This document shows, in pieces, positions 2,644 through 63,676 of a stretch of 64,000 nt of DNA. Source of the DNA: a virus. Location: the IMG/VR virus record IMGVR_UViG_3300027708_000023; one strand, written 5' to 3'. The translations under genes were made by a program, and so were the position numbers. The notes under the pieces were generated by a model, which did not search any database, was not told the origin of the DNA, and saw nothing but the letters and a program-made list of their open reading frames with translations. Every line of letters starts with the position of its first letter. Within the stretch, counting starts at the first letter, position 1.

Positions 2644-2646
2644 ATG

Positions 2647-22428: not shown

Positions 22429-22449
22429 AATCTATCCTTTTAAAGTCAG

Positions 22450-22802
22450 TGGACTAGAGGGGAGTCGAACCCCTGTCCAGAATAAACATCAATATAAACT
22501 TCTACATCGTTAGTTGATTGTTATCACACTACCAACAAAGCTATCAGAGTTATCTGCGTCAGATTGAGTACAATCATCATTCCTATTTATGTCTGGTAGG
22601 ACTACCATATCCGAATATCGGAGTCAGCATGATTTGGTAATAAGGCTCATGCCGCCCCACCCATTACCTAATTAATTAGGCAGCGAGAGCGAGAGTTGAA
22701 ACTTCGCCAATTAACAATTTTAATCGACTTTTAAACTGGCCGGTCGATTAACCAGTCGATGCAATCTATACCTATTTTACCTGTCGATACCTTTACTAGC
22801 CC
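22450..22802 (-). ncRNA. ssrA: tmRNA; predicted tag (A)GEVSTLALAA*
   Basis: 5' GGGCTAG pairs with 3' CTAGTCC-A (G3.U70); T-arm AGGGG-TTCGACT-CCCCT; internal frame GGC GAA GTT TCA ACT CTC GCT CTC GCT GCC TAA. Confidence 0.93.
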
Positions 22803-23005
22803 TATTTAGTATACCCCCAAACTTTTGGTTTGATAATAATTTCTGGTTGTCTTTCTATAATAATCCTGGCTGGCTTGTTGTCCAGCCTCTTGAGTCTTTG
22901 AATATCTGAATAAAGGAGGAAATTAAATCCCAAGGATGTTAGAAATAATCCTGCAAAAATTGCCGTCAGTGGTTGAAGTTTCATCAGAATCCTTCCTGTT
23001 TAAAG

Positions 23006-23081
23006 TAGGGCGTGTCTGAGTCGAACAGACCTATGAACACCTTATAAGAGTGTCGGATGCAACCGGCTTACCTTACGCCCC
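23006..23081 (-). tRNA. trnI: tRNA-Ile(UAU)
   Basis: Anticodon arm ACACT-CTTATAA-GGTGT; T-arm GTCTG-TTCGACT-CAGAC; A73. Confidence 0.8.
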
Positions 23082-27841: not shown

Positions 27842-28753
27842 TTATTTAGATAGTGTAGTTAAATTTTCATTATATTCTGCAATAGCGAGGTCTTTGCCTT
27901 TGACCTCAAAATCAATATCAAATTCTAGACCATAAGTATCAAAGGGTTGAGTAGGAACATCGCAATGCGCCCGTGGATTATTACCGGGGCGACTCTCACT
28001 ATAATGAAATAATGGAGTGGTTTGCCAAGTATCCCAACACATATTAATTGCTTCACGTTCTGTAAGACCATTTGGATGACATTTATGATGCAGATAATCG
28101 AAGCATATTGGAATACGAGTTATCGGATGGAAAATATCTACTAGTTCTTTTACACTCCAGCAGTTAAGTTTGTCATCGTTTTCGATTGTGATGCGGGCTT
28201 GACAATTATTGTCCAGTTTCTTGAAGTTGTTGTAGAATCTATGAGCAATTTCTTCTCTGGTTCCATTATTATTATGAACATGAAAATTCATTGGCGATCT
28301 ACGATCTGCTGGAAGTCCAATTCTGTCAAAGAAACTGCTGTAGAAGTTAAGTTCTGTAATGGTTTTTTCGACAACTTTTTCACTGAGGCTTGATAAACTA
28401 TTAAATTCACTAGGATGAGCAGAAACCCGTACATTAGTAGAGGTAATAGTTTCCGAAAGATTATCAAACTCGTCTTGTATTTCGTCATAGTTAGGCAAAT
28501 CCCCAAGATCCACATTAGCCTCATCATAAGTAATAAGAGGAAAAATGTCGCTACTAACACGATAAACATAATTATTTTCTGCACAAAATTGGATAGTCTT
28601 GTTAGTCACCATCAGATTATTTTGGATTCGTGATCCAAGAATTTCTAGTGCCTCTTCTCGCGGCAAAGAATTGAAACGCTTAAAAGTCATGGTCTGATGA
28701 CCGAAACCTTGTTCTTTAAGTTTGAGCGAAATGCAACACAGTCCGATACGCAT
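27842..28753 (-). CDS. uvsE: UV-damage endonuclease
   Basis: RIGLCC, YRVSSDIFP, SAHP, IENDD, FDYLHH, HYSE, RAH.D, EVKGKD. Confidence 0.92.
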   Translation of the reverse strand: MRIGLCCISLKLKEQGFGHQTMTFKRFNSLPREEALEILGSRIQNNLMVTNKTIQFCAENNYVYRVSSDIFPLITYDEANVDLGDLPNYDEIQDEFDNLSETITSTNVRVSAHPSEFNSLSSLSEKVVEKTITELNFYSSFFDRIGLPADRRSPMNFHVHNNNGTREEIAHRFYNNFKKLDNNCQARITIENDDKLNCWSVKELVDIFHPITRIPICFDYLHHKCHPNGLTEREAINMCWDTWQTTPLFHYSESRPGNNPRAHCDVPTQPFDTYGLEFDIDFEVKGKDLAIAEYNENLTTLSK

Positions 28754-43599: not shown

Positions 43600-45533
43600 A
43601 AAACATTGTTTTAAATGCTCTATATAGAATACACTATAAAGACAGAGCAGCTACCGGTTTATACTAAAGATTGGCAATAAAAAGTTTTTAGCCTTGACAG
43701 AGTCCTGGAAAAATGATATGTATTATGCAGGTGCGTATGATAAATAAGGGTTAAGAAGTTATAGAAGGGTATACTACAAGAGAGTAGTATCTACTATTCT
43801 AGGTAGCTCACACTAACAATATTCTCAGTTCCAAACTCACCAAAAAATTCAGGGTCCTCATACAGTTTTTTATTTAGATAATCTGTGATGTCTGTTTTAC
43901 TAATACATTCACAATCATCATTTGGTATGGCCAAATCCATTTGTATGGTAACGACCCGAATAGTCTGATTATTATCCATGATTTTTAGTTACCCCTGAAT
44001 CCCTCATATAGACCAAAAACAATACCAACTCCAAAGAAGAGGCCTAGCATTATAATTCCTGAGGTTAAAGAAAAGTTGACCACAGCCACCACCACCTTAG
44101 TATACCATATCGGCTCTGTTGACGCAAAGCCTTGATGGTAAACAACTTACAAGAACATCTCACCGCTCTTGTTAGATTTTAATACTTCCAGGTTTCCAGA
44201 TTAGTCCTATTAACAATCCTAGAATAAAGTTTATTCCTGCAACATAAACAATATTCTCATAAAACTTGCGCACACTCAAGTATCCATAAAAAATATCATG
44301 AGCCATATACTCTTTAAAAGAACTATTAGTAAGAATTTCCAGTTCCGTCTCCATCATAGAGACTCCGATCCATGCGAATAAACATCCGCAAAAAATTGCT
44401 CGAAATATTCTCCACAATACCAACATAAAGCCCCCACAAGAAAGTGGCCCAGCCTATTAACTATTACACCACTAATCCTTTAAGACCATTTTAAGCTTTT
44501 TAGTAATGTTGTCAAAAATCTTATTAACTGGTCCAGTTAGAGTATAGTCTTTCTTATAAGCATCAAGAGCATCCAACAGTTTCCAAGCTTCTTGTTTATT
44601 AATATCAATTTCCATAAATTCTCCAGAATTACTGCTTAGTATCTAAAAGGATTAGCATAACAACCACTATAACTATTAGTAACATTAGTTCTCCAGAAGG
44701 TCAGGGTAGTAGTCTTTAATTTGATCTTCCAACATTTTATTGGTCAATCCCTCTTTATTATCTCTCAACATATCATAAGCAAAATTGTACAGAGTATTAA
44801 AGTCCATATCGTCCAAGAGACGGCTACAATAGGTACTCATAATCTCTTGTCTATTTTCATCAGTAACTTTCATTAGTATTTATTCTCCCCATTCACACTA
44901 ATAATACCAGCATCAACATCAGTTCCACACATAGAACTATCAACCAACTGGTCATTGAGCCAGTCAATAAAATACTCGTAGTCAAAATCCTCAGAGCTAT
45001 TTATTTCTAGTACAATTTTCATTTCTTTCCTGCATCATTCTCAAGGGGTCTGTGATTTAGCCTGACTACACTATCAGACTACTAATCTAACCATCTTTAT
45101 CTATTGAGAATTAGTCTCAAAAATCAGCTTCTTTGTTACTATCGTTGTTACACTGTTTAGTATACCATATCGCAGCATCGGTTGCAAGTGGTTGAAACAT
45201 AAGAACTTAGAAGCAGTGAACCATGTTACTATAGTCACTATTCTCGCTGACTAACAGCAACGGCAGCAAATCCGCTGGATTAGGCGAGACAAATGAATAT
45301 AATCCTATCTTTACATTATTCATTATTATTTTAACCTAACCCTTTGCCCAGTAACCACTTACGTCCATATACAGTATATCGACATCGCAACCCTTTGGCA
45401 ACACTGAGCTTACGAGATTCTTTTACTAAATTGACGTAAGTCGTTGGTATCAAATAACTTAGAGAAATTGCGGCCGGCCCGCCGCGTCGTAAGTCCTTTG
45501 GGAATAAGGGTTTACGTCAAGTGGTCTAGGGGT

Positions 45534-45570
45534 AAAAAAGAACCGCCACCCATTGCTGAGTGGCGGCTCC
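45534..45570 (-). terminator. Intrinsic terminator after the DUF932 gene
   Basis: GAGCCGCCACTCA-GCAA-TGGGTGGCGGTTC-TTTTTT. Confidence 0.85.
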
Positions 45571-45593
45571 CACATTACCCCCACTACGAGGTA

Positions 45594-46544
45594 TTAAAGT
45601 GCCTGAGCGAACTGCATGGCTTTTTCCAGAGCCTTGGTGTTGTCGTTCGCATTCGTTCCGAACCACAGGCTGTCGAGCCGATTGTCTTCGGTGCGACCCT
45701 TATTGTAATTCAGATACTCGTTGAAGCCGTTATAAGCGGCCCACCACGTTCCGCGAACCCCCGTCGCACTCTGCTTCGGGCCTTCGACCAGATTCAGAAT
45801 CTCGTCCATGATATTTCTGGTACGAGTCTTGATCTGATCATCCGGCGTACCGTCGATGTCGAGCATCACCTTGACATAGCGACGAACGTCGGCCTGATTG
45901 AAGTTCTTCGACGCGAGGAACTTGAACTGCTCCGCAGTCGCCTCAAACTCCATGTTGATGTTGTCCATAATGTCTCGCACGTTTTCCAGATTGGTCTTGC
46001 TGGAACGTGTGTGACGAATACGGATCAACTTGGAACCACTGCTCTTGCTATGGGCCATTGCCATAGTGTTAGCACACACAACACGGATCGGCGTATAGCC
46101 AACCCGGATAGCGGTCGTGCCATCGTGCGAGTTACTGAGAAGAATGAACTTCCCAACCTCGTCACCCTTCACGATCTCGCTATTGTCGCGGTTCAGTTGG
46201 GCCAGAACCCAAACCTTCTGACCGCTGTGGAGCGAACCGGCAGTATGCAACGCACACTCGCCAGCATCCAGAAACGGCTGGAACCAATCGAACGCCTCGC
46301 TGTTTTGCAGCGGGGTGTATCGCGGGCCGACAACGCCCAGAATACTGGAGTCTGTCTTGCGATAGGTCGCACGGGCCGGAACGGGTTCGCCGTCCACCGT
46401 GAACAAATCCTTCAGACCGACTTCCCAATCCAGACCGGCAGCGGTCATAGCTTCCGAAACCGTAGGGGCTTCGTCAAGCTGGTTCCCAAGGCCGTGCCAC
46501 GGGGTCGCACCAACAAACATCATCTGTTCAACTGCATGAGCCAT
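45594..46544 (-). CDS. DUF932 family phage/plasmid protein
   Basis: PWHGLG, AGLDWEV, Y.P.QN, LSNSHDG, RVVCANT, GTWWAAYNG..EY; visibly GC-rich. Confidence 0.9.
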   Translation of the reverse strand: MAHAVEQMMFVGATPWHGLGNQLDEAPTVSEAMTAAGLDWEVGLKDLFTVDGEPVPARATYRKTDSSILGVVGPRYTPLQNSEAFDWFQPFLDAGECALHTAGSLHSGQKVWVLAQLNRDNSEIVKGDEVGKFILLSNSHDGTTAIRVGYTPIRVVCANTMAMAHSKSSGSKLIRIRHTRSSKTNLENVRDIMDNINMEFEATAEQFKFLASKNFNQADVRRYVKVMLDIDGTPDDQIKTRTRNIMDEILNLVEGPKQSATGVRGTWWAAYNGFNEYLNYNKGRTEDNRLDSLWFGTNANDNTKALEKAMQFAQAL

Positions 46545-46587
46545 AATCATCCCTTTCGTGTTGCTGTTCAATCGTTCTTGTCCACTG

Positions 46588-46616
46588 ATTCTACACTATA
46601 TTATCGGCAGTGTCAA
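46588..46616 (-). promoter_or_regulatory. sigma70-type cassette promoter with CCGATA spacer motif
   Basis: TTGACA-17 bp-TAGAAT; the same design precedes most modules. Confidence 0.8.
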
Positions 46617-46698
46617 GCGAAAACTTTGGAAAAATTCCGCAGGTCGCAAGTGGTTGGTAGATAAGGACTTACGGCGACCGGGGCCGCCCCAGCTTGCC

Positions 46699-47205
46699 CT
46701 AAGTCTTTGGCTGGTAAGGGTTTAGGATTATCGTGCCAAAATGCTTCTCAAAAAGTTTAGAATCTGTAGAAGCATTGAAAGAACATTCTTCACCAAGATA
46801 GAAGTATGCTCCGATACACTTTGCTCTTGGAGTATCATCAGAAATACTACCAATAATATGTTTAAGAGTATCTCCAGAACAAATCAAATCATCCACAATA
46901 ACATATCGTGATGGAGAAACGCCTTCAAGGAAAAATTCGCTATATCGCTTTTCATCCTTACGAACAACGATAATATTCTTATTGAGAATCTCCGCAATCT
47001 GTGGCACTACCATCAAACCACTTACGCCACAACAAGCAATACTGTCAAAATCGTTCTCAATCTTACGCAGAGAACAAACGGCTTTTATAATCACACCATT
47101 CCGATATTTATGATTTAATACTCGGCTAGTATGAGCCGCTCCTTGAATGATTTTACCATCTGGTGTGCGACGAAAATCATCTAGTTCTTGCTGGAAAGCG
47201 CTCAT
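46699..47205 (-). CDS. Type I phosphoribosyltransferase
   Basis: YVIVDDLICSGDT PRPP-binding loop; VVRK. Confidence 0.82.
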   Translation of the reverse strand: MSAFQQELDDFRRTPDGKIIQGAAHTSRVLNHKYRNGVIIKAVCSLRKIENDFDSIACCGVSGLMVVPQIAEILNKNIIVVRKDEKRYSEFFLEGVSPSRYVIVDDLICSGDTLKHIIGSISDDTPRAKCIGAYFYLGEECSFNASTDSKLFEKHFGTIILNPYQPKT

Positions 47206-47207
47206 AA

Positions 47208-47288
47208 AGTGTGTGGTTGGATTTGAACCAACAGCCCGTTATAAGAAAGGAATAAGAATAGGGTCTAGTCCCACCTAGAAGCACACAC
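47208..47288 (-). ncRNA. tRNA-shaped RNA with a pyrimidine-rich loop replacing the anticodon arm
   Basis: Acceptor GTGTGTG/CACACAC, D-arm TCTAG-GTGGGA-CTAGA, T-arm GTTGG-TTCAAAT-CCAAC, CCC-(23-nt loop)-GGG. Confidence 0.65.
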
Positions 47289-47519
47289 AAAGATTATTCG
47301 TTTTCGTCTTCTTCAATACTGGAATAATAATTCTTACCATAAGACGGAACCTCATCATCCTCTTCTGCATCTTGCATCCAAGGTTCTTCATCCAGACCAA
47401 GATCCTCGGCATTTTCTACCAATTCATCATAGTCATAATCATAACCATCATAATCTTCATATCTCATATTTTACTCCCTTTCTTACCCTTATTCTACACC
47501 AACAATCGTCATTGTCAAG

Positions 47520-47592
47520 TGGGCCCTCGGGGACTCGAACCCCGAACCTAAGAGTTAAAAGCTCCTTGCTCTGCCAATTGAGCTAAAGGCCC
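47520..47592 (-). tRNA. trnK: tRNA-Lys(UUU)
   Basis: AGGAG-CTTTTAA-CTCTT; canonical cloverleaf. Confidence 0.92.
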
Positions 47593-47850
47593 GCCTTATT
47601 ATTCGGTTACGGTAATTTCCTCGTAGGAATAACTTTGGACATTTTCGGTTGTAAAATCATACAGTTTGTCGAAAACATCGGCCCAATCAAAATCCTCTTG
47701 CACGGATAGTTGAATATCGGCCAAAGTCTTACCATCCTCAGTCAAAATATCATAGATGCGAAGGTTCTTCATCATCGTTTTCCTTTCTTGTTCCAATAGT
47801 CTACCATACTCTTATCGTCCTGTCAAGCGATCTAACTTTAAAATTTCCAA

Positions 47851-47922
47851 TGACCCCACGGAGAATCGAACTCCGATCTCCACCGTGAAAGGGTGGCGTA
47901 CTAGCCGTTATACAATGGGGCC
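47851..47922 (-). tRNA. trnE: tRNA-Glu(UUC)
   Basis: CCACC-CTTTCAC-GGTGG. Confidence 0.92.
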
Positions 47923-47951
47923 ATCCTCGCAACTCAACATCAGCCTCCGAA

Positions 47952-48038
47952 CGGAAGAAGTAGGATTCGAACCCACGGACCCAATTAAGGGTCTCCGGTT
48001 TAGTAAACCGGTGCATTAGACCACTCTGCCATTCTTCC
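47952..48038 (-). tRNA. trnS: tRNA-Ser(ACU)
   Basis: CCGGT-TTACTAA-ACCGG; long variable arm GACCC-TTAATT-GGGTC; G73. Confidence 0.85.
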
Positions 48039-48043
48039 TTAAG

Positions 48044-48115
48044 CTGTCCGACTAGGATTCGAACCTAGAACCAAGCGGTTAACAGCCGCCTACTCTACCG
48101 TTGAGCTATCGGACA
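48044..48115 (-). tRNA. trnN: tRNA-Asn(GUU)
   Basis: GGCGG-CTGTTAA-CCGCT; G73. Confidence 0.92.
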
Positions 48116-48445
48116 TCAATTTCCAACTTCTTCATTCAATGGGTTCACCTAACGAACCTTTAATCTCTTCTTCTTTTTCAATCAATTTATTTGCATTGAT
48201 AATGCCCCACAGTCTGTGGTCAATGTCGCTTATTGTGCTCCATATTACTTTACTTCTGTCATTACATCGATCAACTTCACGATCCAGTTGTTCACTAAGA
48301 CTCCTAGTCCACATAGGGCAATATTGCATTCTGTCCATCAAGAAATATATTTGAATTTGTTGAATAATTAAAGTTATTATAATGATCGTATAAAATGAAG
48401 CTTTGATGTATTTCATTGTCATGTTTCTCTAAAAAACGAACATAA

Positions 48446-48516
48446 TTCCGGGACTAGGATTCGAACCCAGACAAAGAGAACCAAAATCTCTGGTGCTACC
48501 GTTACACTATCCCGGA
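48446..48516 (-). tRNA. trnQ: tRNA-Gln(UUG)
   Basis: AGAGA-TTTTGGT-TCTCT; U1-A72. Confidence 0.9.
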
Positions 48517-48517
48517 G

Positions 48518-48590
48518 AGCCGATGGTCAGAATCGAACTGACGACAGGCAGTTTACAAAACTGCTACTCTACCAACTGAGTTACATCGGC
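48518..48590 (-). tRNA. trnT: tRNA-Thr(UGU)
   Basis: GCAGT-TTTGTAA-ACTGC. Confidence 0.92.
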
Positions 48591-49409
48591 AATCCTACTA
48601 TTATAGTCAATAGTCCCCATTCTCGCAAGCCCTGCGGTTTTCAGCGGATCGGGTTCGTGTTCGCTTGGGGCGATTGTCCATAACGGTGTGACGGTGTTCC
48701 TTGTGTCCCGTAGGAACTTGCCACTGCGGTCGTACCTTGATCTTGATATGATTGCGTCGTGGCCTCATATCGTCGTTGTTGTGGAGCGTAATCATGCCAT
48801 TGTCCATTTTCGTGTAGGTAAAAAACTTTGTCAACATTAGGGTCGTAAGCCATCAGACAGTATTGTACCGGATAAACTACTTTTGTCAAGGCCGGTTTCT
48901 GAGGCATGGGAGGGAATTTTATATCACCTTTCTGATAATCTTTTACACCATTATAGGCTAATCCCAAAACAGCAATCAGAATCCCAACCCACTGGATCAT
49001 TCTCTCACCCCTCGTTGATAGTCGTCTCGTTCTCATATATCTATTATCGACCAATCCAGAGTAGAAACTTTAGGAGATTTTTGGATTTGCTATAAAGTGT
49101 TGTGGGCTAAGGACTTACGTCAAAGCCGCCCGGCCCCGCTCGCCCTAAGTGCTTATGCAGTAAGGGTTTGCGGCTAGTCTTACTCTAAAGTCCATCCGGC
49201 ATCTTTTAGAATATGGGTAGTATGTAACACACAAGTTAATCCATCAGCATTTGTATAGTCTTTATATCCACGTTCATCAAGATAGATGTGCTCATCTAGT
49301 GTATCATTTTCATTTGTTTCCCATATAGCATCCATCGCAGCATCCCGTGGACATTTGTTGCAGGAATAAATTAGTTCTAGTGTTCCACATTTGATATAGT
49401 ATTTGCTCA

Positions 49410-49973
49410 TTAGTAGCCCCTCCTGAACAGTTCACATTCGGTACAGCCACAAGCTCCGTAACTATCAACATCATCATAATCAAACTTTCCATAAATATCT
49501 TCATCCCAATCAGTAAAGCTCTCAACCCCAAGGTCGATAGCAACCGCAACCCATTTCCCCTTACGTCGGATATAACCAAAATTACCTTTATGGGCATCAT
49601 TATAGTCTAACCCATATTCTTCTCTCAAATCATAAACTACTTCATCAATAGCAACCCCATTCTTACATTCACTCTGAAAACATTCACCATCACAATCTTC
49701 GTCATGGCACTCTGGCATAGGTCGAGCAACTTCGGTCAAATAACCATAAGCAGTCAACTCGCCATCATACCTACGAATCATACCAACATCCCCATATACC
49801 ATAGGGGCCAAATCAAACTGAGCCAGATGCTTTTGAACCCGATGGGCAAACTCTGCCTCTTGCTCATTCTCAAACTCTTTGAAGCCCACCCGCTTACGGT
49901 TAATCTTTTTGTCTTTGATAATATAGAAAGCATTCTTACTTCCCTCATCATCATACAATCCAACGTAGCTCAT
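49410..49973 (-). CDS. Minimal protein-kinase-like fold protein with Cys insert (paralog of 11564..12088)
   Basis: VGFKEF, LAPMV, YLTEVA, DAHKGNF, IDLG; C-terminal CGCTEC. Confidence 0.55.
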   Translation of the reverse strand: MSYVGLYDDEGSKNAFYIIKDKKINRKRVGFKEFENEQEAEFAHRVQKHLAQFDLAPMVYGDVGMIRRYDGELTAYGYLTEVARPMPECHDEDCDGECFQSECKNGVAIDEVVYDLREEYGLDYNDAHKGNFGYIRRKGKWVAVAIDLGVESFTDWDEDIYGKFDYDDVDSYGACGCTECELFRRGY

Positions 49974-49984
49974 TTTTATTCCTT

Positions 49985-50689
49985 TCAATGGGCTGGAAAC
50001 AAGACATTAGCCAAACCACGAACACACAAGTCACATGATATACTATCTTTAGTGCCAGTGCAAGTGATTTCCGAACGACCGCGACGGATTTCGGGACATA
50101 CCACAAACTTTGTGGCATTGAGAACCACCAGCTTTGGCAGTGCTTGTCGCCATGCTTCGGCTTTTGCTTTGCTTTTAGGACGCTTCGGAGCAATCTTCAT
50201 GTCGCTGTCACACCATGCGAACAGCTTGAAACCCTGTGCCAGTGCTTCGCCCATATCATTATCATCATGCACACTAGCGTACACATTCATATACTTTTCC
50301 AGACTCACAAGCCTAGCATCGTAGATATGAGTATAGAACCACATATCGGGCAGACTATCACCATCGGCCAGAATACTCTCACAAGCCCACGTTACATTAG
50401 CAACATAGTCTAGGTCAAGTTCTCCATTGAGAAACCAGTCGCCACGTTCATGCCAGCGAATAGACTTCTCACGACGTTTTGCTTCCAGAATCATAGCACG
50501 GATTTTATTCTTTTCCGTTATGACATTAGCAAATCCGGCAGTGCGAGCATTTTTATACTGGTTTTCAGTAGCTTCGGCATAACATCCATTACCGAGATAG
50601 TCGCAATCGGGTGGGCAAGTATCGCCCACTGGACGCGAAACCACAATGCAACCCTTACCCAACTTATCATTACCGTCTGCTGTTTTCAT
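49985..50689 (-). CDS. Gp88-like Fe-S / radical-SAM-derived phage protein
   Basis: TCPPDC...GCYA, IRWHERGD, WFYTH, NVYASV, CP...C...CDLC. Confidence 0.65.
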   Translation of the reverse strand: MKTADGNDKLGKGCIVVSRPVGDTCPPDCDYLGNGCYAEATENQYKNARTAGFANVITEKNKIRAMILEAKRREKSIRWHERGDWFLNGELDLDYVANVTWACESILADGDSLPDMWFYTHIYDARLVSLEKYMNVYASVHDDNDMGEALAQGFKLFAWCDSDMKIAPKRPKSKAKAEAWRQALPKLVVLNATKFVVCPEIRRGRSEITCTGTKDSISCDLCVRGLANVLFPAH

Positions 50690-50854
50690 GTTCTTCTCCT
50701 GTGTCTACCGATTCTACACTATAGTATCGGCAACGTCAAGCAGAAAACTTGAAGAAATTATTATTGACGCAAGTCGTTGGTAGATAAGGACTTACGACGC
50801 GGCCGGCCCGCCGAACTTGCTCTAAGTGCTTTAGCAGCAAGGGTTTACAACAAA

Positions 50855-50928
50855 CGAGAGTGACGGGACTCGAACCCGCAACCTCTAGCGTGACAAGCTA
50901 GCGATCTAACCAATTGATCTACACCCCC
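50855..50928 (-). tRNA. trnD: tRNA-Asp(GUC)
   Basis: CTAGC-TTGTCAC-GCTAG; G73. Confidence 0.92.
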
Positions 50929-50933
50929 AACAA

Positions 50934-51005
50934 TAGCCCCAGCAGGAATCGAACCTGCAACTAGAGATTAGAAGTCACTTATTATATCCATTTAACTATG
51001 GGGCC
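50934..51005 (-). tRNA. trnR: tRNA-Arg(UCU)
   Basis: AGTGA-CTTCTAA-TCTCT; T-arm GCAGG-TTCGATT-CCTGC. Confidence 0.88.
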
Positions 51006-51619
51006 GTCAATACCGCAAGCCCCCACGGCGTCCCGTGGAGGCTCGCAGTCATTATAACTCCATAGAGTCGATCACGCAACCGTTTCCGTTTCCGTCTCCT
51101 TCTCTACCTTGCCGTCATGGGCATCACCCGCAGCCTCGGCAGTCACACCAGTCACCCTAGCACGCCACACCTTATAGCCCTGCTCGCTAAAAGCCTTGAT
51201 TCCAGCAGCCTTGACATTAGCATGAACATCACCAGGAAGCTCATCATTAAGAGCCTTAGTAAGGGTAGACACCACATCGGCCGAATCAATCTCGTCGCCA
51301 ACAATATCAACAGCAAAACTAAACTTTTTCATCTTATCTTCTCCAAAATTGTTATAGTTACCAAATCGTTCTAGTATCAGTATACGCTACTGTTACCCAC
51401 TTGTCAAGTCCGTCGTGATGGTTTCTTATGTTGTGCATCGTCGTGGGGTCTTGACTTGTGATACTCTCATTCTACAGTATAGTATCGTCATTGTCAAGGG
51501 CGAACTTGAGCGTCGTTGAAAGATTTTTGATTTTTGTCCTAAGTTGTTTGGCAGCAAGGACTTACGTCAAATTCGGCCGCCCCGCCTCGCCCTAAGTTCT
51601 TCAGGGACAAGGCTTTAGG

Positions 51620-51994
51620 TCAAGAGAGAAAACCCTCGCAACCCAAACCCACCAGATCACGCAGCAGTGCCTCTGCCGCTTCGGGCGTTTTCAGAGTCAT
51701 ACTCTGCTTGGTGTTAGCTGGGGCAGGATGCCATGTATCGTACTTCCAGCCACCAACCAGATAGTCAGTCCAATCTTTGGACTCTTTGAGACCCCATCCG
51801 GAGTGCAGTCGGATAGCCTTGATGCACGGGATACGGTTGTCCGTATTCATGCCACCAGTGATAGTCACCACACGACGCTGGTTCACACCCAGTGCCACTT
51901 CCAATGCACACACAATCTTGTCGAACATATCCAGACTGCAACCATTTGCAATCATGTTCAACGACTCACGCACGCTCAGTTCGATTTTGATCAT
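51620..51994 (-). CDS. Ribosomal protein bL12 (L7/L12) C-terminal-domain-like protein
   Basis: RIPCIKAIRLHSGWGLKESKD ~ bL12 KIxVIKxVRxxTGLGLKEAKD; C-terminal EAAEALLRDL..LG. Confidence 0.7.
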   Translation of the reverse strand: MIKIELSVRESLNMIANGCSLDMFDKIVCALEVALGVNQRRVVTITGGMNTDNRIPCIKAIRLHSGWGLKESKDWTDYLVGGWKYDTWHPAPANTKQSMTLKTPEAAEALLRDLVGLGCEGFLS

Positions 51995-52475
51995 AAATTC
52001 CAAAACTTTCTGTATACTTAGGGTCTATTTCGTAAATGCCGTCAAAATTTCCGTTACGTTCTTCCAGAATATGAACCTGTCGCCCATCGGTAACTAAGGT
52101 ATCATACTCACTGTTATCCCATACAAACTCACCACCATCACTCTCCCTACGCCAATGAACATCACGAATGGGATTATAATACAACTTCTCAAGATTGTCA
52201 ATAGGCAAAGAGGGATAAAAATCCTTGCGAAGCATAACCTCCTCACACTGTACCCATCCACTCACATTCTTTTTTTGTTTCTTATTGACCCATTTTGCCC
52301 TAGCTACCTTATTGACCAGCTTGCAACCACGCATCTCCAACTGGTATTCTGTAGGGTCTACATAAAATTGGTCAACCCTTTTCTTACCCTGCATAATGTT
52401 TACTTGCCACTTCCGATAATTCTTGCCATTAAGCAGATGAAATCGTACTTCGGCATGTTTTTCGACAGTTTTCAT
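51966..52475 (-). CDS. Hypothetical protein
   Basis: 169-aa ORF inside a repeat-bounded module. Confidence 0.6.
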   Translation of the reverse strand: MKTVEKHAEVRFHLLNGKNYRKWQVNIMQGKKRVDQFYVDPTEYQLEMRGCKLVNKVARAKWVNKKQKKNVSGWVQCEEVMLRKDFYPSLPIDNLEKLYYNPIRDVHWRRESDGGEFVWDNSEYDTLVTDGRQVHILEERNGNFDGIYEIDPKYTESFGIYDQNRTERA

Positions 52476-55142
52476 TTGCCTCTCCCGATAACAACACAGT
52501 TGACCGGCTGATCTCCAACCATATCAACGTAGTACGCTGCGTGTCGCCCATTATACCAATAGAACTTCTCTTGTCCATCCCAGTTGTCGTTTTCAACAAG
52601 TGTGCCAGTAGAAACATCGGGATTATCGTAACCACCCTCATAGCCCGGAATCACCACCATGCTATCCTGCGGTACCATCTTCAGTTGTTCGATCAGTTCA
52701 GCAACAGTCATCATATTCCCTTTCGTGTTACCACTATCTTACACTACTATTATCGACAAGTCAAGAGCGAATCTTGAAAAAATATTGCTAATCATAAAGT
52801 CTTTAGAGATAAGGACTTACGTCAAACCCGGCCCCGCTGCCTTGCTCTAAGTTCTTTAGAGGCAAGGGCTTGCGTCAAATCCACAGATCGGCCGCGTTCT
52901 TCACAACGGCCTTTTCTTTGACAGACCCGACATTTTTGATCACGATCTCTTTGGTTCCCTTGAACTCTACCGTACCGTTAGAGTGCATCACCAGATAGGC
53001 CTCTCTGCCGTTCTTTCCCTTGAAGAAGTACAGAAGTTCACCCTCGTCTTCAAAGTCGCTTCGTGTCCACTGTCCAGTCATTTTCGCTTTTCCTCTACAA
53101 CTTGATAGAAACGCCCGTTAACGCTAATTGTACCACCAAACACGTCCCAGGTCAACTCCTCTTTCAAGGCCCGCTTGTGAGCAGCCAGAACAGCCCTGCG
53201 ATCCTGCTTCATCTGTTCCGCTGTCGCATCTGTCGAAATGATTCTCATGACTCGATTTTCTCCAGTTCGCTAAGGTAGGCATCCTTCTCGGTTCCGTCGT
53301 CGTACAAGACCCAGCACCAGACATTGTTTATAGCAGAGTCAAGCTGAATCACGGTTCCTTCGTGTCCGACCAATCCCTGCTTCTCTCCACGCGGCTTCCA
53401 ACGAATACGATCACCAACTGAAATATTGCTCATTGCAGATTTACTCCGTACTTGTGACACTGAAACCTCTCATCCATCTTTTCCGGCTCATCGCACGGTT
53501 CGATCATAATCGAAATACCGTTTGGTGCGGTAAACACATTACGGTAATCGCTATCTTCCCAATCGGGCATATCGTTGCCGACCCCGATCTGATCCATCAC
53601 CAGTGCGTCTGCATGGAACGTGGCCAGATCAAAGCTGCGAAATGCCTTCACATGAACCACTCGGTCATGCTGAACCATCAACACCAGATACATAATCAAC
53701 CTCCTCTTGTGAGCCTTTAGTCTACCATCTATTATCGGCATCGTCAAGGGAGAATCTTGAAAAATTATTTCTAGACGCAAATCCTTTAGAGGTAAGGACT
53801 TACGACAGATTCGGCCGCCCGCCCTTGAGCTAAGTCTTTTAGCAGCAAGGACTTGGATAATCTGGTGGGTAAGGTTGTTCTGGTGGCGGTGGTTTTGGTT
53901 GCCCCTCATCTGGCATCCACCAAGGAACGTCAAAATAATCAACATTGCCGGGAGCTTCACCACAATCAATATTATGAATACAAAAAGGATCATTATAGTT
54001 TATCCTATACTTTCCACGCCACACACCAATAGGCTCACCATAATAGATGATCTTTTGTCCATTAATAGGGCGGCGAGGCCCAAAGAAACTAATCCATTCC
54101 ATTTTGCACCTCTTTAGCAAAATTCTCTGCCGCTTCCTCTGTATAAAACCTACCAAGAAGTCCATTACTATTCCATACTGCCCATCTCTTATTTCCATCT
54201 ACAGCGTCACAGTAATATTCATCAATATCACCAATAAATATTTGTGATTCATTCATTTAGTCACCTCAATACTCCACTTAGTTCCCTTCAACTCAGCAAC
54301 CACACACATGTTCAGTTTAACCAGTTCGGCCACAATTTCGGCCAACCGCTCAATCTCGTTAATATTTAGATAGATCATTTCCAACCCTCTGGCATAGGAA
54401 TTCCTTGAAAGCTAGTATAACACACCACTAATGAATTGTCAAATTGTTTCCATTCTGCTGGCCCATCATCATACTCACCGTGCCACCACTCACCCCAACC
54501 ACCAAGCTCTTTATTCCAGGACAGAGTAAAAGGAAAAGAGTAATCTTTAACACAACAGATATAGAATCCATTTATAACAGGATTATTATAATTCCAGTTC
54601 ATTATATATTTCGACAAATTTCTACCCATGTGTCAATCAATTCCTTAGCAGTTATACCATGCTCATCTGCTAAAGTCAATGCCTCTTCCCGATTGGGTTT
54701 ATTTACAGCAGCCGATTGGCTCCTTAAAACCCTCAAAATCTTAATGATCGCCTCGTTTTTATTCATACCTATAAAAAGCTTCTCTTTCCTCGTATATATT
54801 TGCTATCGAGATTCTAACTTCAACCCATTCGTCTAGGCTGTCAAAATCTTCAAGGCTTTCGGCCAACTCACTATCCTCATAGCATTCTACGATATACTGA
54901 CCCCAACTCTCATAGTTATCATTAGCAAGTTCTTTTGCTTCAGCAATCAGTTCTGGTGTGACATTCAACATGACATTCTCCTCTTGTGTCAAGCCATTCT
55001 ACACTACTATTATCGACCTGTCAATGGAGTTTTCTTTAGAAGATTCTTTTTGACGTAAAGTTTTGTGGTATAATGAGTTAGAACAAATTCGGCGGGCCGG
55101 TTTTGACGCAAGTCCTTTGTTCACTGGAACTTACGTCTCACG

Positions 55143-56138
55143 GAGAGTATTGTATACCGGTTGTAAATGGATCGACTTGCAATGATATGGGAATCGCACC
55201 CCATACGCCGCTAGGACGTGCTTGTTTTTATCACTACGATAGTTTTACAATAAGTGTCCGGTATCACGCACATTACCAACCACAAGTTACCCTGTGGTAT
55301 CTATCCGACCCCTGTTTATAACCAGCGAACCATTTACGATCCGGTTCTATAATCCACCTAAGACTCGGTATTTAAATGCCCCGAATAGGCAATTACTTAG
55401 TGGAAACCGTCCACGCTGCTTCCTTTGGGTCATGACTCCAACATACACAGAGGCTCAGAGGCGACGGTTACTGGTTGTTCGGTATCCGGCTGTTAGTTCA
55501 GCGATCTTACCCGATGAAAGATAAGACACGGTTTTAGCGCCGTGGTGTTAATTCACTCCATTACCCGATGAAGGATAATACCGGATTGTATTATAACGTG
55601 GTGGGGACGCGATCCCCCATAGATTGGCATTACTATCCAGTGCGTAACCAACACTGTCAGCACCATCGCTGCCGCGACATGCGGTGCTTATCGTAATGAG
55701 TTACCCAACCTAGTCCAAGGCATGGACCCACGGGCTTTGGAACTGAAGCTCCTTTCTCTCATTCTCTCCCAAGTGTGACCGTTGGGTCTCTTGGCGAGTT
55801 CTTTCAGTTCGCTTGTGTTGTGCGGGAGTCACATCTTTATTATCCCGCGTCCCCTCTTCATTAGGTTATGCACAACGACTAACCGTCGCTGCGAGGGTGT
55901 TCACAATCAGATTGGGTTATGCCATACTCGGCCTTGCATTTAACCGTGGCTTCTTTGATATCATTCTGCCAGCGGCCCTCATCTGCTTGTATTGTGCGGG
56001 TGGGTGGTTTCGTCTTTTGGAATAAACCATGAACTTGACCACCTATTTAACTTCCCAGCTCCCATGGTAGCTATTGGGGAGTTGCTCATTGCAACCTTGC
56101 AACCCGCGTCGTATTGTCAATGATCGGCTCGAACTCTC
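55143..56138 (-). ncRNA. Candidate ~1-kb highly structured ncRNA
   Basis: Promoter TTGACA-17-TAGAAT at 56169..56141; no minus-strand ORF >=60 aa; three nested 5'/3' terminal helices; many hairpins; 3' T-loop-like hairpin. Confidence 0.75.
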
Positions 56139-56290
56139 GTATTCTACATCTATTATCGTCAATTGTCAAGCCCTCTCTACAGAAATTCTGAAAAATTTTT
56201 AGATTGACGTAACTCTATAGACCATAAGTACTTATGTCAAGCAGGGCCGCCCGCCCTATCCCTAAGTTGTTTAAGGATAAGGACTTACGA

Positions 56291-59200
56291 TTAGTTGTTA
56301 CTAGCCCCAATAGACTCACGAACCCTAACCACCCCATCCCTCTTGGCAATCTCAAGAGCACCACAGATAAAAGCCTGAAACTTATCCAGTTCTGCGGTCA
56401 TAAGCTCAGGATTATAATCAATAGCCTGTATAATCATCTTCATAGCAAAACTAGCCACACGACCAGCAATCAAACCTTTTTCTTCACTTGTCAGCATAAT
56501 TTTCTCCTTACTCCAAGTATACTCTATTAAAGACTCTTTGTCAACCCCTGACTATGTGCTGACTATGCCCACCCAGCCCAACCCCGTAGGGTTAGGAGGG
56601 ACAAACACGAGAGATTCTTTCAAGCATCAAATTCTTCCCGTATAGCTTTTCAGCCATAGACAACGCATGATAAGAACTGTACGCATGAACATAGCCTACA
56701 ATCTTAGTACCCTTCATGACCATGTATGTATCGGTAATCATACTTCTTCCTCCTCTGAGCCAGCAAACATTTCTTCCCAATCTTGAGCATCAAGCCCTGT
56801 TTTCAGAATCTCACGATCATCAGCACCAAGATACGGGAAGCAATTCTGAATCAAACCACCATTCAGCCACTCATTGGCATCACTGAGTTTGGTTGAGATA
56901 CAGAACGGACGACCACCAACACTGTAGCCGCTGAACCTAACAATATCACCTTCCACAGTGCGAGTCACGACATCTCTCAGAGCATACGGCTTATCTATAA
57001 ACATCTTTTTCTCCTTTTGATTCCCCATATTCTACACTACTATTATCGGCCTGTCAAGAGGAAAAACTTGAGCAATAAAAGATTGTCGTAAAGTATTGTG
57101 GCATAAAGACTTACGACGCGCCGGGCGGGCCGACCTCGCCCTAAGTCCTTTGGTGTCAAAGGGTTAGGGGTTGGTCAGTTAGTAGGCAGAGACTGCTAGT
57201 TTTTAGAACAGGTTAGCAAACCCGCTCTTGAACAAAGCACCAGCCAGAAGAGGCTTTCGGCACTTCGTCACTCGCTCTGCGTAGAAATTACGCACCTTAC
57301 CATCCGCAGTTCGACACGTTACCAGATTGGTAGTACGCACAAACTCAGGATCATTGATACGATATCGACTCTTTCGATTCAGTCTCTTAATCTGGTCAGC
57401 AGTCAGCGTCTGCTTGCCGATCACCTTAGCCAGAAAACGCTCATGCGTTCCATGCAAAGGCTGCTCGTAAACAAAGTTGAAAACCTGACCCTCTTGAGCA
57501 TTCGCCAAGCTAGCCTTCGATCCACCATAGACCGAATAGAAGACGAAACCCACAACAGCAGCGGCAACAGCCGCAAGAATCGAACCAAACAGAATCACAT
57601 CACTCATAGAAACCCTTTCAAATTGAAAACCGATCACAACATCCATGCCACAAGTCTACACTAATTATCGTCGTTTGTCAAGCACAAACTTTAGAAAAAC
57701 TTTCTGCCCAGTATTCTTCCATTTCTGCCATATTGATACCACTATCATTCCAAGCCACACAATCGGGTGTTTCGAATCGAATAGGGTCTTTGGTAAAAAT
57801 CTCACGAATCAAAATCTTGAAATGATCGTAAGAGGTACACTGCTTTGCCAGACTATACATATTTTCATCATTACTGATCCACAGACAAACATTCCATGTC
57901 TGGTAGTTTTGATAGCCGTTGTAACTTCCATCGGGACTCATGTTTCACTCTCTCTTTCTCGTATACGTCATTCTACCATATATTATCGGCAAAATCAAGG
58001 GGCAAACTTGAATCTTACGGAATTGTAAGGATTCTCGTAAAGTGTTGCAGAGTAAGGACTTACGTCGAACGCGGCCCGCCCCGTCGGCCCTAAGTGCTTG
58101 AACACAAAGGGTTTACGACGAGACATTATTTTTTACTCAAAATCAACAAAGATGATTTGAGCATAACCGCGAGGCTTAACTGTATAGCCGTCGCCATAGT
58201 CATAGGTCTCGGCCTTGACCGCTGTCATACCGGCCAGAGCCTTAGCTTTACGAACAACGCTACGCTGGCTAGCATTCTTCTTAGGGATGAACTCATAACG
58301 ATTCACCCAACCATAGTTAGCTTCACCACCAAAAGTATCCGTATGGGTAACAACGCACTTCATTTAACAAGTTCCTTTGCTTTCATGGTTTCAAGATACA
58401 ACTGTTCCAACATCTTCACACGACTTACTGCACGATTCGTCTCACGATTCATGAGTATAACAGCTTTTTCGTGTGCTGTCAATACCTTCTTTTTGGTTTT
58501 CATTTTTGATACTCCTAGCCAAACATCTCATACTCTTCATCGGTCAATGCTACCTCATCGGGACGATAGCAGTTATTGCCATACAAATCGCGATTCTTAG
58601 GACGCTTTTCCCATTCATCCATGAATCGGTTGTATTCTTCAAGACGCTTTTCTTCTTCACTTTTCATTCTTCGCTCTCTCTTTCTCTACTCTATTATCGA
58701 CAAGTATAGCATAGAAACTTTAGGTGTCAAGCGGGTAGTTTCCTTGCAATACTGTAAGGTTATCGTAAAGCATTGCAACATAAAGACTTATGACAAATGC
58801 GGCCCGCCCCGCCAGCCCTAAGTGCTTATGCACAAAGGGTTTAGGGGTAGTGCTTAGAATTTTCCTCCAAAATCTGGACTAATTCCAAGTTGCTGCTGAA
58901 CATCCTCGTCGTCCAGAATATCTTGGTCGATCATAAAATCCATGTCATCAAAGAACACTTCGATTTCTGGTTTTCCGTCATATGCGAGAATAGCAGCAAA
59001 ATCATAGATCATAAAGTAGGCCGTAGCTTGTACCCATGATTCTACAAGCCCAGAATGTAACTCAATAGTATCTCTATTAAGATAAACATACTCTATTGCA
59101 GAACACTTGGTACTCTCATTCATTTCATCCCACACGGGAATTTCTTGATTATGCTTATTCAGTTCTTCATCCAGCACACCATCTTCCCGCCACTGTACAT

Positions 59201-62200
59201 AATTTTCGTATGTGGCCTCGATAATACCCGTCGCAATCTTTCGATACTGCATTATACATTTCCTTTCAATTAGTCGTTATATGGCCCATCTTCATTGTAA
59301 TCCACAAATCCCACAGCCTCATCGGCATGGAAATCTTCCTGATAGTCTAAATCTTCCCCATAGCAACCGTAATCCTCATCGGTTCCCCATCCAGCGGAAG
59401 CCAACGCAGACTCAGCATCACCATCCATACTATCATCAAACGAATCATTCTCAAATTCTCCAACGGTATCATCTTCCTCGAAATCGTCGTATTCGTAGCT
59501 CATGATCAGTCCCTCACGATGGTAGTAATGTAAAACAAACCGATATAACCCACAACAAAAGCAATTGCACTAAGCATTAGTATACTCCTCGGGAACAAAT
59601 TCGTCAACAGCACCCACAACGTCGGCCCAATCCCAAAAGTTGACTTCCACACTGGGATCGTCAATTGGCTCGACCATCGGCTCGACAATACCCGCTTCGG
59701 CCATATCGTTCAGAATATCGTTGATCTCGTCGAAGTTCAGCATGATTCTGGTTCCTGTGGTTTCCGTTCGTGATGCTGGTATTCTACACTTATTATCGAC
59801 CCATTGCAAGCCCTAGCGTAAAAGTTTTTCCTTGCAATCTCGTAAGGTTGTTGTAAAGTGTTGCAGCATAAGCACTTACGCTTCGCGGGGCGGGCCGCGC
59901 TCGACGTAAGTCCTTACAGATGAAGGAGATACGTCAAGCCACATCCTAGAATGAAACACAACCCAAATAGAATATAATCACTGATTTTCATCATTTTCCT
60001 CCATATACATGATATTTGACATACTAGCATACAGAATAATACCAACAATATACCCAAAAGCCACACTAATAAAATCAAATTGATACATCCCTGTATCTCC
60101 ATTTTGGTTTAAGTGGTCAATCCCCGTATCCTACCCAGAAATCATCACCCTCATCATTCTTCATAAGAGTATAACCCCTAGACTTCATATTCTCATACTC
60201 GTTGATTCTCTGCCAGACTTCACAGAAAGTTTCCATAACTTTAAGGAAAGCCCCCATAACCCACACAAAAGGATATTCAATCATTCTCATAGTCAAGCCT
60301 CCACAGTGTTGGCAACATGGGTCATATTCTCACACTGGTCAAGATAGCACGAACGATATTCGGTCAGACCAATTTTCACAATCATCATCTTACCCTTGGG
60401 CTTGTCAAGAACCCTACGAACTTCACCACGGTAATTCTCACCCTTATAATCAAACTCGACCCAATCATACCGCTTAATATAGTCCATCATACATTCCTCT
60501 TGGTTACTGGTCATCTTCTCTATACCTATTATCGACATTCTACACTGCAAAACTTTAGTTGTCAACCTTACAAGACCCACAGGTTCCGCTGACTATGCTG
60601 ACTATATCCAAACCACCCAAACCCGTAGGGTTAGCTGAGACTCTCAATTTCCTTTATTTCTGCTCAGAGCAGCATGGCACACTATCTGATCAAGCGTATA
60701 CCATTCACCATCACCGTATCGGCCAGAAAGCCGAATCTTCAGATTCTTTCCGATAATTTGCTGGACAATACCATACCCGTCAACCACCTGAACCACATCG
60801 CCAACCATAATCTTTTGCATCTTTTTCCTCTTTTGAGTATTCTATCGAACTTTTCTGCCGTCGTCAACCCCTCTTATGCGGGGGTAGGTTGCGACCGATA
60901 ATACTTCGCCCACAGTTCATTCATCACGAACTGGACAACACGATCATGAGTACCACGACAAACGTAGTATCCCATGTGAATGTCGAACAGAGCAAACGTT
61001 CCATCCTCTTTCGGATGAAACGTAAACCCACACTTGTAGGCATACCCATTGATCTTACCCTTGACGGTCGAAACTTTCGGAGGCTTTCTCATTTTCATTT
61101 TCTCTCTTTCTTGTCTTACCATTATACATCTATTATCGTCATTTGTCAATAGGGTAGACCAGAAAAAGTTTCCTTGCAATGCTGTAAGGTATTTCTAACA
61201 TGATTTGGTACAGCATTTGCTATGGTGTCGTAAGTCGTTGTGGAATAAGCACTTACGTCAAGCGGGGCCGGCCCGCCTTGCCCTAAGTCCTTTAGCAGCA
61301 AGGCTTTACGTCAAGTTTTTCTTTTCCTGTATATCCGTTCAGTACCCACCCAAACGGGGAGGTAGAGCTTAGGGTACAGCTGTACATACTTACTCTTTAC
61401 ATAACGCTCAGCCTCTAGTGTAACGTCGTATACTAGTGTACAGTCGTTCATTCTTCCCCCTTGAAGCTGAACGGGCTGATTTCCAGATGAGCAACCGCCC
61501 CATACTGCTTGGTTAGTTCCTCGATACGCTCACGCGAACCCGGCTTGCCAACCGGAACGATCATGGTATCCTGTCCCCCCACATAGCGGGGGTCGGCCTT
61601 TTCCTTGCGAGTCTTGCCGATATTCTTCAAGGCAGTACGATTGAACTTGAGAACCTTTTCGGTCACAACGTAACGCTTGTGGTCAGTCACACCGTGAACG
61701 TAGTCAACGTCGATGATAAACTGCTCATCGGCTACTTCGTGGCGAACGGGAATCGCGATACCCTTGAAGATCGCACGGGCTTGACGCTTGGCATTTTCGA
61801 TGATGGGGAACTTGGTTTTCATTGTCTTTTCTCTCTTAGGGTCTATCGTTCTCTTGTGTGTGGATTCTATCAACAATTCTTTTGCCTATCAACCCCCACT
61901 ATGGGTGGGTCGATAAGTCCAGGGGTGTCCGTAGGCATCCACTGCGGGCGAAAGCTCATGGTCTGCACAGTCATGGAGATTTCCACCTTCTGTACGCACT
62001 ACCCACACATTGCCCTCATCATAGTAGTAGGAAACAATCTTTCCAACAATCTGTTTCTCGAATCCCTTGAGCATCACACTATCACCAATTTCGTACATTC
62101 TTTTCTCTCTTTCTTGTGTGTTCATTATACCAAAATGATTTTATGTTGTCAACCTTACAATGTCGTAAGGCTCACCATCCATTTTGACGATAGGTTTCGT

Positions 62201-63676
62201 TCAATGATTCGTTTTCACGACGTTGCCTACTATTCATAGGTTCATCACCAACTTCCCAATTATCCTTTAACGCATCATATCCATCATCAGAATTCTTACG
62301 AACATCATCGAAATCATCATAATCATACCGTGTGTCAGAATAACTCATTTTCTTTCCTCTTTCTTTTTCTTTCTTCTCTATCTATTATACGCTATGAATA
62401 GGAAAAGGTTCAAGAGAAATCCGGATATTTTTATGTCAAGAGAATTTGACAAAACTTTTCGTCATTTTCTTTCTCATTGGCATACCATTTGCTAAGTCGT
62501 CGTAAAGTCTTACTGGGTAAGCACTTACGTCGCGCCCGGCCCGCCCGCCTTGCCCTAAGTCGTTTAGGGACAAGGACTTACGTTCAGTGTTGCTTATTTA
62601 TCCTGCGATTCGCAAAAACCAGCAATGCCAAGCAACCAATGCCTAGTGTACAGCTGAGTACTGAACATCCGAACAGTGTAGCATAGAATTCAGCATATCC
62701 TACAGTAGTAGGCTCACAGTTAGGATGTCCCAAGCCGATAGCCTGCATTACGACAACAAGCAAACAAATCGAAACGCTCCACAACATCGTAAAGGTAAAA
62801 ACGTTCATTTTTTTCTTTCTTAGTAAATAAGGTTCATATCGGCCACAACCATACCATCTTCATACTCTAGGCCACATTCCAGATACCATTGTCCCTTGCG
62901 TTGATACACACGCACGGGCGAATACTGATTGATTCTATCCTTAGTGGTACTCGTATGCCAACCCCCACTATTGAGGGTAGCACTATTGTCGGGATGAATC
63001 TTTACCACATAGGTACTATGCAGCATGATCCCTACGCTACCATCAGGAAGAATTTCCGCATAGGTATTGTTGCCAACCTTGCGAGTATCCTTATTAGTCT
63101 TACCACGAACCATCTTCACTGCTTCACTGTGTGTCATGCGAGAACCTTTCAATAGTTGTAGTCGTCGTAGTCGTGGAGCATGGAATGGATAGCATTACCC
63201 ACCTCATGCACGGTATAGGTAATGAAAGCACAACCAGCAATCAAGGCAAACAGTTGAACATAGTCGATAATCGTCAGCATTAGGATCTCTCTTTCTTGTG
63301 TTGTTATTCTACATCTATTATCGACCAATGTCAACCCCTAGCAGCAAGAAAAACTTCCTTACAATACCGTAAGCTTTCTCTAAGTCTATATGGAATAAGC
63401 ACTTACATAGAGTTCGGCCCGCCACGCTCGCCCTAAGTCCTTATAGGGCAAGGCTTTGCGTCAAGAGGCGTGAATGAACACTTGTTCACTTCTCAGTCTG
63501 CTATTGATAGTTACGATCCAGTTTTTTCCGCTACCATCCTCACGCATGATACCGTTGATAAGGCCCACATGAGCGTTACCCTTGGGGTCGAGCACGCAGT
63601 GATACTTGCCAGCTCGCATAGCAGAGAAAATCTTGTCAAGGTTATTCGTTACCGGCTTATAGGCTGTTGCAAACAT
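56291..63676 (-). CDS. ~20 small hypothetical genes in repeat-bounded, individually promoted modules (e.g. 57203..57646, 58854..59252, 61448..61876, 62820..63152)
   Basis: Minus-strand ORFs with AG-rich SDs, each block preceded by a TTGACA..TAGAAT/TATAAT promoter. Confidence 0.6.
58013..63374. promoter_or_regulatory. Palindromic operator-like site CCTTRC-N6-GTAAGG (6 copies)
   Basis: 58013, 58742, 59830, 61172, 62153, 63357; each lies just upstream of a module -35 box. Confidence 0.65.

Follow-up and report, generated by a model that had tools for sequence, protein, structure and literature searches.

The window considered here, the whole stretch of phage DNA that was analysed, is 64,000 nucleotides long, and one part of it raises a simple question: what is encoded by the roughly 1 kb at positions 55143-56138, where no sizeable open reading frame is found? 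An earlier note on this DNA proposed that the module folds end to end into a giant RNA, either of the GOLLD/ROOL class or wholly new. Parts of this proposal are supported, in that the region is noncoding and promoter-driven, is rich in structured RNA that matches no described family, and is borne by a phage near a tRNA island. The architecture is a different matter. The module is probably a noncoding early transcription unit for an RNA precursor of about eight autonomous small structured RNAs, termed X1b, A, X2a, X2b, B, X3a, C1, and CD.

The window belongs to a large phage that is uncultured, freshwater, roughly 200-240 kb, and distantly T4-like, and all of its genes lie on the minus strand. 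No nucleotide relatives were found among 50,697 deposited phage genomes (INPHARED; blastn and megablast), and the sole link to cultured phages is a distant match of an rIIA-like protein encoded on the window. From ~45 kb onward, the G+C content steps from ~35% to ~45%, and near-consensus sigma-70 promoters on the minus strand are spaced 0.3-1.2 kb apart. Throughout the early region (45435-63460), each module is bounded by 82-bp double-dyad elements, with a consensus promoter after each. A Pfam match to DUF932 lies at 45594-46571. Elsewhere in the window, within 1642-3904, 16281-22428, and 27842-28753, the Pfam matches are to Volactin (actin-like), RuvB, an ATP-dependent DNA ligase, an Ogg-like glycosylase, UvdE, and DUF1501 (414 aa). 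The small proteins flanking the array match only families of unknown function in Pfam and PHROG and therefore provide no partner protein for the RNA units.

The translation-related RNAs of this phage form part of the setting. Eleven tRNA genes and one tmRNA are present on the window (Rfam 15/ARAGORN), and a tRNA island at 47.5-51 kb lies ~4-8 kb downstream of the array, as it does in relatives. A tRNA-Ser with the anticodon ACT (47952-48038, minus strand; ARAGORN) is kept in most relatives, including L002, L003, L004, and L006, and has the anticodon GCT instead in a few. A serine tRNA with A34 is unusual. The tmRNA is full-length (22447-22802, minus strand; Rfam 92.9 bits, model positions 1-374), and directly upstream of it ARAGORN calls a tRNA-Ile(TAT) at 23005-23081 that is not on the Rfam gathering list. 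Pistol ribozymes (RF02679) are absent from the window and occur in relatives outside the array. With scores of 50-56 bits, they lie ~240 nt upstream of tRNA-Arg (L021 15145-15207, L016 8237-8299, L012 14938-15000, and L025 15507-15569), a position taken in the window by an 86-aa ORF (51072-51332).

The module is framed by the following elements.

56141-56169, minus strand: sigma-70-type early promoter, with TTGACA at 56169-56164, a 17-nt spacer, and TAGAAT at 56146-56141, matching the consensus at 11/12 positions
56108-56134, minus strand: short 5' leader X1a, ending in the linker-like UUGACAAUACGA
55054-55135, minus strand: 82-bp double-dyad element that ends the module, with the next promoter at 55024-54996

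The promoter lies where the earlier note placed it, and what was called perfect there is better described as near-consensus. Together with the dyad element upstream of it, the promoter is conserved in relatives, and the start of transcription is predicted from the sequence to fall near 56134. The leader X1a is conserved in L017 and L016.

The region between these elements does not encode protein. As the earlier note had observed, no minus-strand ORF reaches 60 aa, and the longest within 55143-56138 measures 41 aa. Each of the six frames contains 11-27 stop codons of all three kinds. Because every frame is filled with all three, no single stop reassignment opens one, and an alternative genetic code was rejected. 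The translated frames of the array match no protein family in PHROG, and no frame is open or repairable. A 21-codon micro-ORF in unit A was rejected as its ATG or frame is lost in L011, L019, and AAG-to-TAG variants. Plus-strand ORFs of 70-76 aa were rejected as well; they have no PHROG match, lie on the strand opposite to the genes, and are cut by unit indels. The frameshifted protein pseudogene that the earlier note had allowed for is likewise not what the relatives reveal, as the region is not coding and relatives differ by the insertion or deletion of entire RNA units.

The make-up of the array was resolved by comparison with relatives. Initially 37 related IMG/VR loci, on contigs of up to 244 kb, were retrieved via two flanking small proteins. 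BLAST block maps of the 37 and then of 80 related loci show that the module is a mosaic in which each unit is present or absent independently; about 100 related IMG/VR phage contigs display this mosaic. An 84-nt block (A) and a 156-nt block (containing B) are each found in nearly all loci, and two further blocks, of ~180 nt (C1+C2) and 32 nt (D), are frequent, while the stretches 56144-55989, 55904-55740, and 55583-55416 are found in few relatives or none. The shortest arrays consist of A and B only and measure ~250-350 nt (L005, L027). The window array, at 1 kb, is the longest and has the largest unit set among the arrays examined. Its units are listed below.

55996-56107, minus strand: X1b, 112-nt cloverleaf with closing stem GCGGGU/ACCCGC and three hairpins, found only in L017, L011, and L016 besides the window
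55905-55988, minus strand: unit A, 84-nt three-way junction with a near-invariant core and a 17-nt loop containing the palindrome GAUAUC
55822-55904, minus strand: X2a, a pair of hairpin domains with the linker ACAACACAAG behind them, folding z-score -3.1, almost unique to the window
55740-55810, minus strand: X2b, hairpin RNA of 71 nt closed by the stem GAACUGAA/UUCAGUUC, z-score -2.0
55597-55732, minus strand: unit B, 136-nt cloverleaf-shaped RNA built on a four-way junction; its long arm terminates in a second junction, three-way and variable at the tip
55500-55584, minus strand: X3a, in which two copies of a hairpin (stem UUAUC/GGGUAA, loop UUCAUC) flank a third hairpin, z-score -1.9
55318-55476, minus strand: C1, 159-nt multi-branch RNA with P1 ACCAGU/GCUGGU, P2 AACCGUC/GACGGUU, variable hairpins, and P4 GAACC/GGUUC
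55147-55311, minus strand: CD, a scaffold enclosing a tRNA slot, with C2 at 55311-55237, D at 55178-55147, and the slot at 55236-55179

Units also differ in their position among relatives. Unit A occupies another place in L012 and L021, and in L058 it stands behind a promoter of its own and is set apart from B by several small genes. In more distant phages (~150-kb contigs), A is 90-99% identical and B is 72-77% identical; a separate promoter precedes A there, at a distance of 1.3-1.9 kb from B. Several units of relatives (L058 4820-4945, minus strand, and the arrays of L011 and L016) are absent from the window: a ~110-nt unit after A that ends in a long stem and a U run, GUCACCA...UGGUGAC before B, and UGUG...CACAUUGACAAUACAA downstream of B. 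In all, considerably more than ten units take part in the shuffling. One tRNA-shaped element, inside the L011 array (1781-1886), is not called by ARAGORN; it combines the acceptor stem GGCGAA/UUCGCC with a long additional insert and a T arm of canonical form, GGUGGUUCGAUUCCACC.

The secondary structure of unit B is conserved. A search with its pattern matched 77 IMG/VR stretches, and over 43 distinct sequences pairing holds at 98.5% of cells, with compensatory changes at 18/37 pairs. Such pairing is reached by 0/500 shuffles, and slid controls are 36-44% paired. The single copy in the window scores 138 bits (model R1) and has a folding z-score of -3.0. Helices P1 and P2 never vary, which is partly fixed by the search pattern itself; P2 is the gtcca/tggac inverted repeat listed in the earlier note. 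B is cloverleaf-shaped only, and its reading as a true tRNA mimic was rejected: the junction spacings do not fit, the hairpin at the T-arm position has a loop of 3-6 nt, and there is no T-loop sequence. The B pattern also matched three short MAG contigs, from bins assigned to Planktophila, Acidobacteriaceae, and Methylococcaceae. These contigs are probably mis-binned phage DNA, and the naming of a host from them was set aside.

Unit A is distinguished by its loop. Its closing stem covaries, with 6 pairs changed. A search that specified only the stems and left the 17-nt loop free returned 69 stretches, comprising 52 distinct copies, and the central hexamer of the loop was GATATC in 48, GACGTC in 3, and AACGTT in 1; all are palindromes, and no other hexamer occurs. 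The palindrome is kept through changes, so that the loop covaries with itself, which is most simply read as a sign that one copy of A pairs with another. This covariation makes it very probable that two copies of unit A pair via the palindromic loop. Alternatively, the palindrome could in principle be a protein site at the level of DNA. Folded alone, A has a z-score of -1.0, no better than shuffled sequence, and the support for its structure is comparative. The hairpin loops of X3a (CCUUCAUC; 55573-55560 and 55522-55509) are complementary to GAUGAGGG on the 5' side of A (55983-55976) over 8 pairs, one of them G-U, a match that may be due to chance.

Comparative evidence for the other units ranges from ample to slight. 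Across its four sequences, X1b has compensatory changes at 7/29 pairs, including the closing stem, and a folding z-score of -2.9. C1 is represented by 55 distinct copies. In 25 diverse copies of it the core helices P1, P2, and P4 persist, P1 and P4 show compensatory changes, and the variable hairpins in between are replaced wholesale. L016 and L064 also have X2b, in which 2 pairs show compensatory changes. X3a is also present in L002, L021, and L025, with little or no comparative support; the 12-nt direct repeat that the earlier note pointed out is there and represents the two copies of one X3a hairpin. The structure of X2a is without comparative support, as its sole homologue is a short match in L083. 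The internal inverted repeats of the earlier note are all present, and most are conserved local helices, with aaccgtc/gacggtt and ccacctaag/cttagtgg forming helices of C1 and ccacaag/cctgtgg a variable hairpin of C2.

CD is a near-invariant scaffold, known from 16 distinct copies, whose insert is swapped among at least six tRNA-like versions. The slot is occupied by a tRNA-Ile(UAU) in L022 (ARAGORN call), by a 37.8-bit tRNA in L006, and by tRNA-like inserts with covarying acceptor stems in other relatives. In the window, L002, and L003, it contains a ~58-nt remnant in which the acceptor stem and T arm are kept. Neither the covariance model nor ARAGORN calls a tRNA in the window remnant (55236-55179). 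Given that the homologous slot holds a called tRNA in L022 and one of 37.8 bits in L006, the window copy is a decayed derivative, and the T-loop-like hairpin that the earlier note singled out at 55205-55186 is its T arm. Two helices, GGGUCG/CGAUCC or AUACCGG/CCGGUAU, are predicted to wrap around the slot, and they remain predictions since they cross each other and never vary.

Between the units lies a recurring short sequence.

55987-55995, minus strand: linker ACAAUACAA, with copies or variants at 56109-56117, 55813-55821, 55586-55594, and ~55147-55156

Linkers of the ACAAUACAA type follow most units, and the same linker stands after the units in relatives. Four minus-strand linker matches of the window lie in the 1 kb of the array, where the linkers are concentrated.

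Each unit is closed by a helix that joins its own 5' end to its 3' end, single-stranded linkers separate the units, and related phages gain, lose, reorder, and relocate them independently. These features suggest how the module may work. Host RNA polymerase would produce one precursor from the consensus promoter. The linkers and the tRNA-like element would then be the sites where host nucleases cut this precursor, with an RNase E-type activity and, at the tRNA slot, RNase P as the candidates. The cuts would release stable small RNAs, as in the tRNA/RNAC/RNAD cluster of T4. As to function, the best guess is that these RNAs, abundant and made early, serve in trans during host takeover as decoys or scaffolds that bind proteins, with some of them mimicking the shape of tRNA.

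The main rival to a processed precursor is a cis-acting 5' leader, because most arrays lead into a gene. In such a leader, the units would stay unreleased and would either stabilise the early mRNA by protecting its 5' end or control the translation or processing of the downstream small genes. In most relatives the dyad element is absent from the end of the array, and their arrays run straight into AAUACAAAGGAGA (a Shine-Dalgarno site), an ATG, and a gene of 54-68 aa, with no terminator or new promoter between. This terminator-less run into a Shine-Dalgarno site and small gene fits a cis-acting leader and a precursor equally well. Also in favour of a leader are the position of unit A, which in most relatives lies only a few bases from the predicted start site, and the presence of the linker sequence before the Shine-Dalgarno site as well. 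However, the arrays of the window, L001, L011, L016, and L017 terminate at the dyad element and a new promoter, where no gene is served, and in L058 unit A and one more unit are gene-less, stand between two promoters, and end in a stem and U run. The downstream gene differs between relatives, and the invariant loops and the palindromic loop exceed the needs of 5' protection. A leader role for the array is judged unlikely, though more probable than the remaining rivals.

The preferred reading, a precursor of separate small RNAs, has a further and rather doubtful extension to self-assembly. Either the whole array transcripts or their released units would assemble: unit A would dimerise through a kissing loop and CD would display a covalently held tRNA or tRNA mimic, together giving a modular assembly made of RNA only. 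If this were true, the job of the GOLLD and ROOL nanocages, holding or presenting tRNAs or translation factors, would be carried out by shuffled small parts and not by one giant fold.

Separation of the units could also be their own doing, if A, B, or C1 were new self-cleaving ribozymes that split the precursor. Their invariant junction and loop nucleotides, their multi-stem junctions, and their position between RNAs needing separation would suit this role, and the Pistol ribozymes of relatives belong to the same early/tRNA region, at a distance of a few kb. Against this, no ribozyme of Rfam 15 is matched even at E<=10, no catalytic core is recognisable, and the window itself has no Pistol ribozyme. 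Self-cleavage by these units is very unlikely.

The single giant RNA of ~1 kb, closed by pairing of its two ends, was the proposal of the earlier note. The three 5'/3' complementarities on which it was built are present in the window and nested, and the 9-bp match is nominally unusual: when the two 60-nt ends are shuffled 5000 times, only 0.8% of the shuffles reach 9 bp. The minimum free energy fold retains just one of the three, the outer 6-bp GAGAGU/ACUCUC. The setting in a phage close to a tRNA island is shared with GOLLD and ROOL, and tRNAs are sometimes part of the GOLLD linker (10.1101/2024.12.08.627333). Nevertheless, the closure fails in the relatives, none of which has both arms of any of the three helices. 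The stretch with all three 5' arms (56144-55989) is absent from most relatives, and L017, L011, and L016, the sole relatives that have it, are without every 3' arm.

Both arms of the 9-bp helix in fact belong to conserved local helices. The 5' arm, UUGCAAUGA, is the 5' strand and loop of the hairpin GGUUGC-AAUGA-GCAACU in X1b, and an A-to-C change in L017 and L016 sits in the loop of this hairpin, where it would disrupt the long-range helix. The 3' arm, UCAUUGCAA, takes in the 3' strand of the acceptor stem that the remnant tRNA retains. That stem covaries locally, with G-C in L002 and A-U in the window, and this local exchange relative to L002 explains the window-specific bases in UCAUUGCAA. 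Compensatory changes among homologues, to which the earlier note had looked for confirmation, are found in the local helices of B, A, X1b, and C1 and not in the end-to-end closure. The units, moreover, occur alone and in other orders.

Membership in a known family was addressed with covariance models. Searches with Rfam 15 cmscan, covering the whole window at gathering thresholds and 54800-56500 and the single units at E<=10, returned no match to the array. GOLLD, ROOL, HEARO, OLE, group I/II introns, and RNase P were among the families without a match at gathering score or E<=10, and the GOLLD model, whose 3' domain is universally conserved in that family, and the ROOL model matched none of seven related loci. 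In the absence of any covariance-model match, the array is not a member of GOLLD or ROOL, nor is it a wholly new large RNA, as its units are independently inherited and separately placed. A giant RNA that folds end to end is highly improbable. Weaker still, and barely credible, is a decayed coding sequence or meaningless spacer between cassettes, which would suit an ORF-free, mosaic region with an X2a nearly unique to this phage but not the compensatory changes that keep helices in B, A, X1b, and C1, the 88-99% identity of A in phages whose B is only ~72-77% identical, or the failure of every translated frame to match a protein family.

The array contributes at least four new structured RNA families with clear comparative support, common to ~100 uncultured freshwater phage contigs. 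Three of its features can be put to experiment directly. The palindromic loop, kept through double changes, predicts dimerisation; the repeated linker predicts processing sites; and the conserved scaffold with its swapped or decayed tRNA insert is a third directly testable feature. As the promoters are of the E. coli-type consensus, expression and probing of the units would be possible without a culture of the phage.

Several known systems resemble parts of this module. The dimerisation initiation site (DIS) of HIV-1 is a hairpin loop with six self-complementary bases that mediates kissing-loop dimerisation, and its variants stay palindromic. The hexamer in the loop of unit A is alike in being palindromic, whereas its sequence and context are unrelated and its dimerisation is suggested by covariation.

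Stable phage RNAs near tRNA islands, such as T4 RNAC/RNAD, GOLLD, and ROOL, have gone unexplained for decades. RNAC and RNAD of T4 are co-transcribed with tRNAs. Also called species 1 and 2, they are small structured RNAs of 139 and 119 nt in the tRNA gene cluster, and their role is unknown (PMC3014915). The units described here are similarly small and structured, and the T4 RNAs likewise are encoded on the same strand as, and adjoining, tRNA genes. With filters off, however, the unit B model R1 reaches at best 6.9 bits on T4 66000-76000 and finds nothing on rnaC/rnaD, and the likeness is therefore one of analogy and not of membership. T4 has two such RNAs, compared with about eight here that are shuffled among relatives, accompanied by a repeated linker and a tRNA scaffold, and often placed upstream of protein genes.

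The organisation of the array recalls the PeSL (promoter-early plus stem-loop) cassettes, which mediate modular shuffling and flank swapped modules in T4-type phages (PMC2839356, PMC4122927). The array is likewise bounded by a conserved dyad element and an early promoter, a likeness in the make-up of the elements. PeSLs have been described around protein genes, whereas here the cargo consists of RNA units, and a second kind of junction, ACAAUACAA, is found inside one cassette.

The closest parallels in setting are GOLLD and ROOL, which self-assemble into homo-oligomers, with GOLLD sometimes containing tRNAs in a linker region (10.1101/2024.12.08.627333). The location in a phage near tRNA genes and the tRNA slot of CD are traits shared with GOLLD that do not define the family on their own. 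Like GOLLD and ROOL, the array is phage-encoded and lies near a tRNA island; its CD unit carries a tRNA, and the loop of A would suit self-pairing. The difference is one of design: GOLLD and ROOL each have one conserved large fold, whereas the array is composed of separable units of 70-170 nt with independent distributions.
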